Assembly: GCA_001780275.1 (NCBI GenBank)
Contig: MFGB01000017.1
Coordinates: forward strand, 1 to 57,840
DNA: 57,840 bases
Direction of reading: 5' to 3'
From: Candidatus Falkowbacteria bacterium RIFOXYA2_FULL_47_19
Lineage (GTDB): Bacteria; Patescibacteriota; Patescibacteriia; Patescibacteriales; UBA12075
Positions 1,384 through 4,432 of the stretch are shown here, piece after piece; within the stretch, counting starts at the first letter, position 1; each line of letters starts with the position of its first letter. Position numbers and translations under genes: made by a program. The notes under the pieces are model-generated. The model had not been told where the DNA came from. It saw only the letters and a list, made by a program, of their open reading frames with translations, and did no database searches.

Positions 1384-1482
1384 ATTACAAATGCACAAAT
1401 TAAAACACGAATAACACCAATGTCCATTAAACATGTTAATCCGGTATTTGTGAATTTGTGATAAGATTAGTGTATATGTAAT
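1384..1482 (+). mobile_element. Empty inverted-repeat element, copy A (MITE-like derivative of the GxxExxY element)
   Basis: 38-bp left arm + 24-bp spacer + 37-bp right arm; about 84% identical by hand alignment to 4335-4432; arms match those flanking the GxxExxY gene. Confidence 0.75.
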
Positions 1483-1488
1483 ATTATT

Positions 1489-3588
1489 ATGAGCAAGGAA
1501 CAAGTAAAAAAAAGAATAGAAAAGTTAAGGCGCGAGATCGACCGTCATCGTTATCTTTATCATGTTTTGGATAAACCGGAGATGAGCGAAGCGGCCTTAG
1601 ACAGCTTGAAAAACGAGCTTTTTAACCTGGAAATGGAATACCCGGAACTGATCACGCCCGATTCGCCCACCCAGCGGGTGGGAGGGAGAGCCCTGGATAA
1701 ATTCGGAAAAGTTACGCATGAGACGCCGATGATATCGCTTTTTGACGCTTTTTCCCTTGAGGACATGGACGACTGGGAAAAACGGCTGCGGAAACTGACT
1801 GCCCGGAAACTCGATTATTATGCGGAACTTAAACTGGACGGATTGGCCGTGTCTTTGCGCTACGAAAAAGGCTTGCTCGCGAGAGGCGCTACCCGCGGAG
1901 ACGGACGGACCGGAGAAGACGTGACCGGAAACCTTAAAACGATCGAAAGCATACCGTTAAAGCTGCGGATTCCGTCCGAAGACGAGCTTAGGGAGATCGG
2001 CCTTAAATCCGGACAGGCGAAAGCGGTGTTGCGCGCCATCCAAAGCGGGGCATTAGAGATTCGGGGCGAGGTTATCATGACCAAAAAAGTTTTCAAGGAG
2101 CTTAACCGGAAATATGAGAAAGAAGGCAAGCCGGTATTGGCCAATCCCCGGAACGGGGCGGCCGGTTCGATTCGGCAATTAGACCCCGCGCTCTCGGCGG
2201 AAAGGAAATTGTCTTTTTACGCTTATGAATTATCAACCGAACTCGGTTTGGACAGACACGAGCAAAAGGGAAAGATCGCCGGATTGTTCGGCTTAAGGAT
2301 ATTGAATGAAAATAAATATTGCCCCGACCTTTCCGCAGTGGAAGCATTCCATGATCACTGGGAAAAACACCGGGAGAGCCTGCCCTTCGAAGTTGACGGG
2401 ATCGTGGTCAAGGTGAACGATCTGTCCTTGTGGCCGGTTTTAGGCACGGTCGGCAAGGGGCCGCGCTTTATGATGGCCTATAAATTCGCGGCCGAGCAGG
2501 TAACGACCAAAGTAAAAGACGTTGTCTGGCAGGTGGGACGCACCGGTACCATGACGCCGGTGGCGGTTCTCGAACCCGTACGCGTCGGGGGGGTAACGGT
2601 AAGCCACGCCACGCTCCATAACATGGACGAGATCGGGCGGCTAGGCCTTAAAATCGGGGATACGGTCGTTATCGAGCGGGCCGGAGACGTGATCCCGAAA
2701 GTGATCCGGGCGTTTCCTGAATTGCGCGCCGGCCGGGAGAAGGATATCAACGCGCCCGAATTCTGCCCGATCTGCCGGTCGCGGGTAGCGCGGACCGCGG
2801 GCGAGGTGGCTTACCGCTGCGTCAATCCGGAGTGCTATACCGTGAATTTGCGCCGTCTCGCGCATTGGACCTCGAAGGGAGCTACTGATATCGACGGCGT
2901 AGGCCCGAAAATAATCGAGCAATTGGTCAAGGCGGGATTGGTATCCGATATCGCCGATTTTTACGACCTGAAGGAAGGCGATCTAAAGCCCCTGGAAAGA
3001 TTTGCCGATAAATCGGCGGAAAACCTGGTCAAAGCGATAAGCGCGAGAAAAGAGATAGATTTGGCGCGGTTTATTTACGGCCTGGGGATCAGGCACGTGG
3101 GAGAGGAGATGGCGATCGCGCTGGCGCGGGAAATCGGTCATCGGATATCAGATATTAAAGATATTGATTCGGTCGTTAATGTTTTGCGAAAGATGACATC
3201 CGTTGATCTGGAAAATATTGAAGATGTGGGGCCGATCGTGGCCGGGAGCATATACGACTGGTTTCATGACCAGAAGAATATAAAAGTTCTCAAAAAGCTG
3301 GAAGATAGGGGGGTGGCCATCAGAAAACAGAGAACAGAGAACAGAGAACGGGCAAAACTTAAAGGCAAGACGTTTGTTTTAACCGGTACCCTGGCGGGTT
3401 TGACAAGGGATGAAGCAAAGGCTAAAATAAGAGAAATAGGGGGTTCGGTTTCATCTTCGGTCAGTAAAAACACGGATTTCGTGGTAGCGGGAGAGAACCC
3501 GGGATCGAAGTATGATAAGGCGAAGAAGCTGGGGGTAAAGATACTGGACGAGGAAGAATTTATAAAGATTACGAATTCACGAATTTGA
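1489..3588 (+). CDS. ligA: NAD-dependent DNA ligase
   Basis: ELKLDG adenylation motif, [29 protein letters not shown]...C...C zinc finger, C-terminal BRCT (FVLTGTL...[12 protein letters not shown]). Confidence 0.98.
3321..3348 (+). repeat. In-frame heptamer tandem repeat inside ligA linker
   Basis: CAGAAAA CAGAGAA CAGAGAA CAGAGAA just before the BRCT domain. Confidence 0.7.
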
Positions 3589-4047
3589 TCACAAATTCAC
3601 AAATTATGATTGATGTTCGTGATAAGATCATCCACAAAGAGTTGAGTTATGAAATTGTAGGAATTTTATATGATGTTTATAATGAATTAGGGTTTGGATA
3701 TTCTGAAAAAATATACGAAATAGCTATAGCTAAAGAATTGGCGGCCAAAGGAAAACAATTCAAAAGACAAGCGTCGTTTATTATTTCATATAAAGGGGAG
3801 TGTGTAGGTAGATATTATCTTGATTTTATAATTGAAAATAAAATCGTACTTGAATTAAAACGGGGAAATTATTTTTCTAAGAAGAATATAGAGCAAATCA
3901 AAGGATATTTAGCGGCAACTAAAATGAAGTTGGCAATATTGGCTCAATTTACCGCTAACGGAGTTAAAATATTTAGAGCGTTTAATCCGAAAAATAAATG
4001 TTAGTATGGTATTTGTGAATTCGTGTTAAGATTTGTGAATTCGTAAT
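3568..4047 (+). mobile_element. Putative IR-bounded element carrying the GxxExxY gene
   Basis: 37-bp arms 3568-3604 and 4011-4047 are inverted repeats (32/37 match) and enclose only the GxxExxY ORF; more AT-rich than ligA/gatA. Confidence 0.75.
3606..4004 (+). CDS. GxxExxY protein (PD-(D/E)XK nuclease-like)
   Basis: LGFGYSEKIYE motif, YLDFIIENKIVLELK, QIKGYL; ATG at 3606 preferred over the TTG at 3585, which lies in the repeat arm. Confidence 0.92.
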   Translation: MIDVRDKIIHKELSYEIVGILYDVYNELGFGYSEKIYEIAIAKELAAKGKQFKRQASFIISYKGECVGRYYLDFIIENKIVLELKRGNYFSKKNIEQIKGYLAATKMKLAILAQFTANGVKIFRAFNPKNKC

Positions 4048-4050
4048 TAT

Positions 4051-4335
4051 ATGCTTACTAAAAAAGACATACAACACATCGCCGATCTGGCTCGCTTGGA
4101 TTTGACCGAAGAAGAATTAGATAAATACGGGGAGCAGCTAACCCGGATTTTGGGATATATCGACCAATTGCAGGAAGTAAATACCGACGGGGTTGAGCCG
4201 GCCGCGGCCGCGACGGGCGAGAATGTCTGGCGGGAAGACGAAGTTTCGGAATGGGACGAAGGGGAAGTAAAAGAAGCTGTGGGCGAGGCGCCTGAGACGG
4301 AAGAGGGGCAGGTTAAGGTAAAAAGAGTTTTGTGA
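4051..4335 (+). CDS. gatC: Asp/Glu-tRNA amidotransferase subunit C
   Basis: HIADLARL...ILGYIDQLQEVNT...VWREDE...VKVKRVL; directly upstream of gatA. Confidence 0.95.
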   Translation: MLTKKDIQHIADLARLDLTEEELDKYGEQLTRILGYIDQLQEVNTDGVEPAAAATGENVWREDEVSEWDEGEVKEAVGEAPETEEGQVKVKRVL

Positions 4336-4432
4336 TTACAAATTCACAAATTAAATCACAAATGCACGAATATTTATAAAACATGTTGATCTGGTGTTTG
4401 TGAATTCGTGATAAGATTTGTGTATTTGTAAT
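4335..4432 (+). mobile_element. Empty inverted-repeat element, copy C
   Basis: 37-bp left arm 4335-4371, 24-bp spacer containing AACATGTT, 37-bp right arm 4396-4432; fills the whole gatC-gatA gap. Confidence 0.8.

Follow-up and report, generated by a model that had tools for sequence, protein, structure and literature searches.

The first 57.8 kb of contig C17 (57,840 nt; MFGB01000017.1) of Candidatus Falkowbacteria bacterium RIFOXYA2_FULL_47_19, referred to here as the window, carry a gene of the GxxExxY family at the ligA/gatC junction, enclosed by two 37-nt inverted arms. Two shorter copies of the same arm pair, lacking the gene, occupy the neighboring junctions. On balance, we favor the reading that the segment 3568–4047 is a copy of a widespread selfish "junction cassette" whose PD-(D/E)XK nuclease recognizes the cassette's own arms and which leaves derivatives resembling MITEs (transposable elements of the miniature inverted-repeat kind); the arrangement of gene and arms and its wide occurrence are shown, and the binding, the cleavage, and the movement of copies are what we infer. 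The genome (1.71 Mb, 25 contigs) is labeled G000 and its congener G001; C denotes a contig and L a locus.

The ligA/gatC cassette and its cargo-less copies

The open reading frame (ORF) at 3606–4004 matches PF13366 (PDDEXK_3) with 101 bits (cutoff 22) and TIGR04256 (GxxExxY) with 99 bits (cutoff 35), and its GxxExxY motif reads GYSEKIY. A preliminary description of this DNA had placed a GxxExxY gene between inverted arms here, and the family matches confirm the ORF; the arms are complementary at 32 of 37 positions (86%). Each arm consists, as that description had also proposed, of two pairs of units, which read YACRAAT, around a noncomplementary center. The left arm, which was recovered by a profile of such arms (nhmmer E 1e-7), encodes the six final codons of ligA together with its TGA stop, and the ATG of the GxxExxY gene follows only 2 nt past this arm, leaving no space for a promoter or a Shine–Dalgarno (SD) site of its own. 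In genome annotation, arms of this kind wrongly lengthen or supply the ends of host genes; the LigA sequence here ends in the arm-encoded ...ITNSRI*. The site is a junction between protein genes, not a 23S or 16S rRNA helix.

The two cargo-less copies at the neighboring junctions, with spacers of 25 and 24 nt, are identical to each other at 83 of 99 positions and keep the arm order of the full cassette. One fills the junction from the stop of the ORF at 175–1383 to the ligA ATG at 1489; the other begins with the A of the TGA that ends gatC. When up to two mismatches were allowed, the half-arm pattern ATTACRAATNCACRAAT was found 12 times in the window, 11 of these within the three copies, whereas shuffled windows gave a mean of 0.52 matches and none of 100 shuffles reached 12. 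As RNA, the copies at 1384–1482 and 4335–4432 are predicted to fold with −25.6 kcal/mol (z −3.2 versus shuffles) and −32.4 kcal/mol (z −4.6), respectively. The loop ends ATGTTAATCCGGT and ATGTTGATCTGGT had been said to lie in register with ATGTTAGTATGGT at the 3′ end of the gene, and each agrees with it at 10 of 13 positions, a match of modest weight because the congener's full copy differs in sequence at this place. At locus L064, from another Patescibacteria genome, gatC/gatA holds a full cassette whose arms are of the same type, in register with the empty hairpin of the window, which supports the notion that the empty copies are internal-deletion derivatives.

The window also holds traces of a sister class of cassettes, the cargo of which is a four-helix-bundle protein (PF05635, the protein family of 23S rRNA intervening sequences, IVSs). 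A truncated gene of this family abuts the gatA stop; no bracketing repeat was detected around it, and it is a remnant of this sister class. Further downstream, a cargo-less hairpin has arms resembling those around the four-helix-bundle gene G000:C25:16672-17176. An Rfam search of window positions 1–9000 returned one tRNA only and no family for the hairpins. All 15 sequencing runs listed for positions 1200–4600 are DNA contigs; over positions 1–8000, four runs that share part of the sequence gave short contig pieces, in which no joint skipped the cassette or a hairpin, an outcome that carries no information on polymorphism within the population or on expression. The earlier statement that the window is free of transposases and integrases was borne out for the four families searched (PF00589, PF01797, PF00665, and PF01609), not every ORF having been annotated.

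Table 1. Features around the ligA/gatC cassette (window coordinates)
Feature	Position	Strand	Remarks
Hypothetical-protein ORF	175–1383	+	402 aa
Cargo-less hairpin copy	1384–1482 (99 nt)	+	Arms 1384–1420 and 1446–1482; loop 25 nt
ligA	1489–3588	+	TGA stop 3586–3588
Left arm, full cassette	3568–3604 (37 nt)	+	Four units: TTACGAAT TCACGAAT ttga TCACAAAT TCACAAAT
GxxExxY gene	3606–4004	+	132 aa; ATG 3606, stop 4004
Right arm, full cassette	4011–4047 (37 nt)	+	Inverted copy of left arm
gatC	4051–4335	+	ATG 3 nt past right arm
Cargo-less hairpin copy	4335–4432 (98 nt)	+	Arms 4335–4371 and 4396–4432; loop 24 nt
gatA	4431 or 4440 (start) to 5891	+	Downstream of hairpin 4335–4432
Truncated four-helix-bundle gene (PF05635, 23S rRNA IVS protein family)	5893–6111	+	61 bits, model positions 36–105
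Cargo-less hairpin, four-helix-bundle-type arms	7082–7206 (125 nt)	+	Fold −50.5 kcal/mol, z −7.6; precedes tRNA

Empty hairpins in the genome

A profile built from the six arms of the window retrieved about 14 further paired loci on other contigs, and a 17-nt half-arm pattern matched the genome 60 times, versus 3 times for its reversed control. Full and empty copies coexist, as had been anticipated: for this arm type, the genome holds about 15 paired empty hairpins, 80–117 bp long, and one full copy. Of the 15 complete loci, at least 9 are placed between ORFs of the same direction, where they begin 0–8 nt (once 24 nt) after the stop codon and finish 1–18 nt before the start codon. The second GxxExxY gene of the genome, on contig C10, carries its own, different arms, and all five intact PF05635 genes are bracketed, each by another repeat. 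Among the genomes compared, the median number of ACRAATNNACRAAT dyads was 28 in those with a PF13366 gene versus 3.5 in those without (Mann–Whitney p 7e-4, the relatives not being independent).

A second hairpin family is built from CCCACAAAT/TACAAAT units (G000:C17:72338-72435, C18:36042-36136, C5:33065-33149, and others). Full GxxExxY cassettes in other genomes (e.g., L027, L066, and L068) have matching arms, but G000 contains no full copy; these are orphan empties. We also considered whether the hairpins substitute for ribosome-binding sites, but dropped the idea: none of 11 hairpin-following genes has an SD site, which cannot be distinguished from the baseline, as an SD-like 4-mer is present at only 18% of the genome's crude first-start ORFs. 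At the one clean empty/filled site described below, the empty allele has GGAG and the filled allele does not.

In the whole genome, neither PF00665 (rve) nor PF01609 (DDE_Tnp_1) had matches, while PF00589 matched on contigs C10 and C5 and PF01797 on C22. The PF01797 match (5639–5863 within G000:C22:5000-6700) belongs to a single Y1_Tnp (IS200/RAYT-like) gene with the motifs YHIYNRG and HYHFLL; inside it and just after it are G+C-rich palindromes of the AAGCCACC..GGTGGCTT type, which are unrelated to the A+T-rich arms. At G000:C10:51800-65000 (L213), a 306-aa tyrosine recombinase (Phage_int_SAM_4 and Phage_integrase) heads an integron-like array. It is divergent from at least 12 small ORFs, including a GNAT protein, a DUF5680 protein, a serine hydrolase, and several without a family; inverted-repeat pairs recur every 260–620 nt, and the second GxxExxY gene lies about 3 kb beyond.

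Arms in relatives and across phyla

To score bracketing, we compared the 220-nt flanks on the two sides of each gene and took their best inverted repeat without gaps. In this genome, 400 random placements had a median score of 8 and a 99th percentile of 12, so a threshold of at least 13 was used, and the same loci shifted by 800 nt served as controls. Among 40 relatives, 25/27 GxxExxY genes reached this threshold (shifted controls 0/53), as did 28/30 four-helix-bundle genes (controls 1/58). Across phyla, 51/73 GxxExxY genes did so (controls 0/136; 0/189 for the two GxxExxY sets together), in a set that comprised the best 80 matches to the window protein in one scan of species-representative genomes, less 7 skipped for short flanks, and that samples the protein's own subfamily best. 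It includes Patescibacteria groups, Bacteroidota, Planctomycetota, Chloroflexota, Acidobacteriota, and one Woesearchaeota. Thus, the arms that had been noted at a single gene are a general property of GxxExxY genes.

The units of GxxExxY arms (such as YACGAAT, YACAAAT, ACTAAT, ACAGAT, ACGGAT, and GCGAAT) share the general core RCNRAW, are spaced by 7–8, 10–12, and 7–9 nt, and most commonly number four per arm. An unbiased count of 6-mers ranked ACGAAT, TACGAA, and ACAAAT highest in GxxExxY flanks, while the flanks of four-helix-bundle genes contain quite other words; their arms are strict heptamers, with autocorrelations of 0.68, 0.65, and 0.60 at lags of 7, 14, and 21. A rule demanding at least two AC[GAT]AAT upstream and at least two complements downstream was satisfied by 11/27 GxxExxY loci in the relatives and 33/73 across phyla (plus 4 with reversed polarity), compared with 0/30 four-helix-bundle loci and 0/243 controls. 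The proposed association and co-variation of arms with this gene family were further upheld by a correlation between protein identity and shared arm 6-mers (Mantel r 0.40, reached by none of 2000 permutations). At the least, therefore, arm and gene evolve as a single unit. Cargo genes are co-oriented with their neighbors in 169/180 and 50/53 cases, versus a baseline of 876/1204.

Conservation of the arm units

When unit cores (RCNRAW) were defined on one arm and the other arm was read for mismatches, GxxExxY arms differed at 6.5% of core positions versus 21.1% of positions outside (Fisher p 8e-48). Only the third core position varies freely (21.6% mismatch); at C2 and A5, the arms disagree about 1% of the time. 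Mismatches compatible with G:U pairing are equally frequent on both strands (62 sense, 63 antisense), 197 are transversions, and the centers between the dyads are often noncomplementary. Conservation in GxxExxY arms tracks the word, not the helix. Because of this core-biased conservation and the lack of a G:U bias, the units look like protein-recognition sites and not just like an RNA stem; the pattern points to putative sites for a protein. Since each cargo family has its own word, the most economical candidate for a reader is the cargo protein. The inverted layout is consistent with a protein that recognizes duplex DNA or an arm–arm duplex, but not with one that recognizes single-stranded RNA. 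Four-helix-bundle arms show a weak sense-strand G:U excess (34 versus 19, p 0.053). A count of compensatory changes in orthologous hairpins, which gave 5 pairing-keeping double changes versus about 1.3 expected, was unusable, 2 of the 11 pairs being out of register.

Comparison with the congener

G001 is about 90% identical to G000 over a syntenic 4.4 kb. At ligA/gatC it has an orthologous GxxExxY cassette and at gatC/gatA the same hairpin as the window; the junction of the hypothetical gene and ligA, which in G000 holds the empty hairpin 1384–1482, is taken in G001 by a different GxxExxY cassette, whose arms are of the GCGAAT/ACGAAT type. The three junctions, for which the preliminary description had named identity and vertical inheritance across relatives as evidence against its proposal, are not all identical. 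G001 also lacks the truncated four-helix-bundle gene (about 45 nt versus about 300 nt in G000) and the hairpin at 7082–7206, and three junctions hold different elements in the two congeners.

Overall, about 8 of roughly 20 sites differ between the two genomes. One G001 site (C49:20266) meets a clean empty site in G000 (C8 near 31930), one meets a G000 hairpin of another unit type, and one further site stays unassigned; three G000 sites are without a match in G001. Direct comparisons of filled with empty spacers, at sites A and B and for L227 versus L239, involved sequences too diverged to define borders. The arms of nine orthologous empty hairpins are identical at 644/666 positions (96.7%), with a synonymous divergence (dS) of the flanking genes of 0.34–0.37. 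The left arm of the full cassette is below this level, at 28/37, and the GxxExxY gene itself (3606–4004 versus L031 4939–5334) has a dS of 0.85, compared with 0.34–0.37 for ligA, gatC, and gatA. Because of this higher dS and lower arm identity relative to neighbors and empties, the cassette at ligA/gatC may have been exchanged.

Recurrent junctions and a cultured genus

GxxExxY genes occur in 19 of 41 relatives, in 0–5 copies. In 7 of the 30 relatives with a gatC locus, a cargo gene adjoins gatC on the same strand: a GxxExxY gene lies upstream in G000, G001, and G028 and downstream in G025, and a four-helix-bundle gene upstream in G008 and downstream in G010 and G029. The rough expectation is 0.3, calculated from 179 cargo matches in about 35.8 Mb under the assumption of one junction per kb, with relatives that are not independent. 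The flanks of gatC form a hot spot at which insertions recur. When the 242 ORFs neighboring cargo loci were clustered, GatC formed the largest group (9, L024 and L062 being the same sequence), followed by LigA, GatA, MetG, and EF-G.

Many other gatC spacers contain hairpins, solo arms, or tandem units, and spacers in this lineage often consist of short periodic units. At the gatC loci L178–L207, several short spacers have one-sided runs of units without an inverted partner, such as a row of seven ACATAAC in G016 and, at gatC/gatA in G027, a solo arm of four units; these may be remnants or a separate phenomenon.

Starting from L138 (Flagellimonas olearia), we read the junction between map and a methyltransferase gene in 30 species of this cultured Bacteroidota genus. 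The cassette is intact in 13 species and partial in 2, and 5 have a remnant (arm units with or without the 3′ end of the gene); 5 contain an unrelated insert of about 190 nt, and 5 a short, unit-free spacer of 20–32 nt. These states require at least six changes on the host tree. Where the cassette or a remnant is present, the methyltransferase starts at an arm-derived GTG, and in the five empty species at an ATG; one remnant is a solo right arm, the final ATTCGTG of which supplies the GTG.

The GxxExxY protein

Among 17 diverse aligned members, E34 (of the GxxExxY motif), D73, E83, and K85 are invariant, and the protein is predicted to be a minimal PD-(D/E)XK nuclease. An AlphaFold2 (AF2) model has a predicted local distance difference test (pLDDT) score of 91 and shows a PD-(D/E)XK (restriction-endonuclease-like) fold, and its Foldseek matches include Cas4 SSO0001 (E 5e-5), lambda-exonuclease-like enzymes, and Hjc Holliday-junction resolvases, the last being the most compact. 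A search of solved structures by sequence found none (best E 0.09). In a survey of PD-(D/E)XK proteins, the table lists the function of PF13366 as "Unknown". The ratio of nonsynonymous to synonymous substitution rates (dN/dS) is 0.00–0.11 for nine pairs from the cultured genus and 0.11 between G000 and G001, similar to the values for ligA, gatC, and gatA (0.11–0.15). The gene is under strong purifying selection.

Proposed mechanism and alternatives

The cassette consists of a promoterless gene for a predicted GxxExxY nuclease of about 130 aa between two inverted arrays, each of about four 6-nt units (RCNRAW, here YACRAAT) with a spacing of about 8/12/8. It lies exactly in the stop/start junction of a co-directional housekeeping operon and would be transcribed by read-through. 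In the mechanism that we propose, a multimer of the nuclease, for which four units per arm would predict a dimer of dimers, would bind the unit arrays, either on duplex DNA or on a hairpin or cruciform formed by the arms, and would then cut the borders of the element or unoccupied arm pairs; recombinational repair could keep or copy the cassette in a homing- or transposition-like manner. Internal deletion would turn cassettes into hairpins of 80–117 bp, MITE-like partners in which the units are kept and conserved.

Several observations weigh against this mechanism. The non-nuclease four-helix-bundle genes share the bracketed layout (28/30), so a nuclease is not needed to make or keep arms, which weakens the claim that it acts as a transposase. 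Four genomes (G003, G011, G019, and G021) have 23–67 dyads but no detectable GxxExxY gene, and the G001 copy of the gene at ligA/gatC has an in-frame TAA, yet hairpins are as numerous there. No clear target-site duplication was seen at the single clean filled/empty pair (G001:C49:20266 versus G000:C8), and two G001-only sites meet 7-nt and 17-nt remnants in G000 that look like G000 deletions. About 12 of roughly 17 G001 hairpin sites are common to G000, and the terminal clades of the host tree reappear in the cassette tree of the cultured genus. Because the cassette tree follows the host tree and most hairpin sites are common to the congeners, recent history was mostly vertical inheritance with repeated decay, not jumping. 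The preliminary description had proposed an autonomous/nonautonomous pair driven by a GxxExxY nuclease, which is partly supported. The sequence comparisons that it had suggested turned out in its favor, and none of the observations that it had named as refuting was made; the shared arms, the full/empty pairs, and the polymorphism between relatives uphold the pairing, while the driving role of the nuclease is called into question by the bracketed four-helix-bundle genes, the lack of a target duplication, and the mainly vertical recent history.

A function that benefits the host would also be consistent with the strong purifying selection and the vertical descent. As sequence-specific nucleases binding DNA or RNA, GxxExxY proteins might serve, for instance, in repair, defense, or control of the operon around them, with arms as operator-like sites of self-regulation and hairpins as selected binding or regulatory structures of a domesticated element. 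Such a role would account for dN/dS values of 0.00–0.11 over long vertical histories, for the 96.7% identity of empty-hairpin arms in the two congeners, which far exceeds that of neutral sites, for arms that provide host stop and start codons (the ligA stop; the methyltransferase GTG in the last unit), and for the co-orientation of cargo with operons. We nevertheless consider it rather unlikely, given a patchy distribution (19/41 relatives, 0–5 copies), frequent decay through in-frame stops, truncations, and remnants, different elements at one junction in close relatives, and 5/30 species of the cultured genus that have a clean short spacer and manage without the cassette. We regard as unlikely, too, an element acting at the RNA level in the manner of 23S rRNA IVSs, in which the arms would pair in the transcript and be cut by RNase III, the cargo mRNA would be released or silenced and the cistrons parted, and the protein would be a passenger spread by ordinary recombination and gene transfer. 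GxxExxY arms have no G:U bias (62 versus 63) and mostly transversions, their spacers and centers are often unpaired while unit cores are near-invariant, unlike selection on pairing alone, and the unit motifs differ by cargo family; to our knowledge, RNase III has no unit specificity of this cargo-family type. What speaks for the RNA level is the co-orientation of cargo with the operon, the predicted folds that beat shuffles (z −3.2 to −7.6), the heptamer arms of four-helix-bundle genes (28/30) with their weak sense G:U excess (34 versus 19, p 0.053), and an anatomy like that of the rRNA IVSs described in PMC4990558.

Mobilization in trans, with GxxExxY as mere cargo of hairpins and cassettes moved by another enzyme, either a RAYT-like Y1/HUH transposase or an integron-type tyrosine recombinase, appears very unlikely. 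Candidates exist in the PF01797 gene at G000:C22:5639-5863 and the two PF00589 recombinases, one of which heads the C10 array; the TACAAAT hairpins without a matching full copy in the genome and the equally bracketed non-nuclease cargo would also suit an outside enzyme. The Y1 gene, however, has G+C-rich palindromes of its own that bear no relation to the arms, PF00665 and PF01609 were not found in the genome, and a host enzyme acting in trans would leave unexplained why the arm motif tracks cargo family and protein sequence across phyla. Finally, the arms are A+T-rich and repetitive, and lineage spacers often consist of short periodic units, so one could suspect a chance likeness of low-complexity intergenic DNA. 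This is refuted by the controls (12 window matches versus 0.52 expected, 60 versus 3 for the reversed pattern, 0/189 shifted loci) and by the conservation of the motif across phyla.

Relation to known systems

[quoted passage not shown] IVSs with an S23p ORF (PF05635; e.g., in Coxiella and Leptospira) thus resemble the cassettes in having a small ORF inside terminal inverted repeats of short tandem units, and likewise in residing within an essential, highly transcribed unit, without a promoter of their own, in a sporadic distribution and with an ORF that decays. The heptamers of the four-helix-bundle arms described here match those reported there for the Coxiella rRNA IVS, and the PF05635 genes of G000 and its relatives have the same bracketed layout between protein genes. 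The window cassette differs from IVSs by its location in a stop/start junction instead of an rRNA helix, by its cargo, a predicted PD-(D/E)XK nuclease instead of a four-helix bundle, and by arms built from a pair of RCNRAW dyads rather than from strict heptamers, without a sign of selection on RNA pairing.

Like an insertion sequence (IS) and its MITE derivatives, of which the Correia/NEMIS elements of Neisseria are an example, the cassettes have terminal inverted repeats common to one coding copy and many short noncoding intergenic copies, with presence/absence polymorphism between close relatives. They differ in that no DDE, HUH, serine, or tyrosine transposase lies between the arms, the sole ORF being PD-(D/E)XK; in the lack of a target-site duplication at one clean pair; in arms that are arrays of 6-nt units; and in insertions within a few nucleotides of both a stop and a start, with a cargo that needs read-through. 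With repetitive extragenic palindromes (REPs) and their REP-associated tyrosine transposases (RAYTs) they share a single-copy gene flanked by an inverted hairpin repeat that is also scattered without the gene in intergenic regions, an analogy already drawn in the preliminary description; however, the protein is PD-(D/E)XK (PF13366) rather than an HUH tyrosine enzyme (PF01797), and the repeats are A+T-rich unit arrays of 80–117 bp, whereas REPs are short G+C-rich palindromes.

Free-standing homing genes include seg and mob of T-even phages, and I-Ssp6803I is a homing enzyme of the PD-(D/E)XK type. The cassettes are reminiscent of homing endonuclease genes in placing a small nuclease gene between conserved essential genes, with gatC, ligA, gatA, metG, and fusA as recurrent neighbors, in cycling at a single site through intact, decayed, and lost states, and in being under purifying selection. 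We know of no homing genes that carry inverted unit arrays at both ends or leave multicopy hairpin derivatives. Integron cassettes differ more clearly: attC is a single hairpin 3′ of the ORF in an array beside intI, while the ORF described here has an arm on either side and each copy stands alone within an operon. The integron-like array on C10 is located elsewhere and has other repeats.

Bracketed GxxExxY cassettes were not described in the literature searched, which left supplements and the NCBIfam/Pfam family texts, where flanking repeats might be mentioned, outside its range; this kind of element looks undescribed. PMC3936711 reports a cas locus in which cmr3 and cmr2 are separated by a PF05635 gene, and PF05635 genes have been noted in rRNA insertions of bacteria of the candidate phyla radiation (CPR), in both cases without a junction-cassette explanation.

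A broader proposal, which we hold tentatively and consider possible rather than probable, is that GxxExxY and four-helix-bundle (S23p/Avd-like) proteins are the sequence-specific nucleic-acid-binding parts of two sister classes of self-perpetuating junction cassettes that colonize operon junctions and rRNA helices throughout bacteria. The rRNA IVSs would be the rRNA-resident subset. GxxExxY would be a new mobility nuclease that reads arrays of 6-nt units, cuts hairpins, cruciforms, or empty arm pairs, and thereby drives copying, while decay would yield MITE-like hairpins supplying host stops and starts. TIGR04256/PF13366 and PF05635 are large cross-phylum families without a known role, for which the finding supplies a concrete, testable context: each such gene with its own inverted short-unit arrays, an operon-junction site, and hairpin derivatives. 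If true, this would explain the "association" of these genes with unrelated operons (e.g., cmr3/cmr2), many intergenic hairpins in reduced genomes, and the origin and nature of rRNA intervening sequences, a question dating from the 1990s. Cultured carriers such as Flagellimonas olearia (L138) make bench tests feasible.

Other observations

The tRNA at 7283–7366 is intact in the window. An insert of about 470 nt seems to interrupt its G001 orthologue (L031 8233–8774) after the T-arm region. Within the insert are an ORF of about 85 aa that is GIY-YIG-like and a second tRNA-like sequence, and the 3′ end of the interrupted tRNA resumes near 8760. The ORF at 175–1383 has a weak, sub-threshold match to the fibrinogen C-terminal domain (19.5 bits, cutoff 22) and a hydrophobic N-terminal segment of pilin-like appearance. 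Adjacent 73-nt stretches at 11504–11576 and 11617–11689 are 75% identical; each opens with ATG, as if two paralogous genes began there in tandem. The direct repeats at 33832–34051 and 56148–56367, 22.3 kb apart and 71–85% identical over 160 and 46 nt, are probably paralogous genes.

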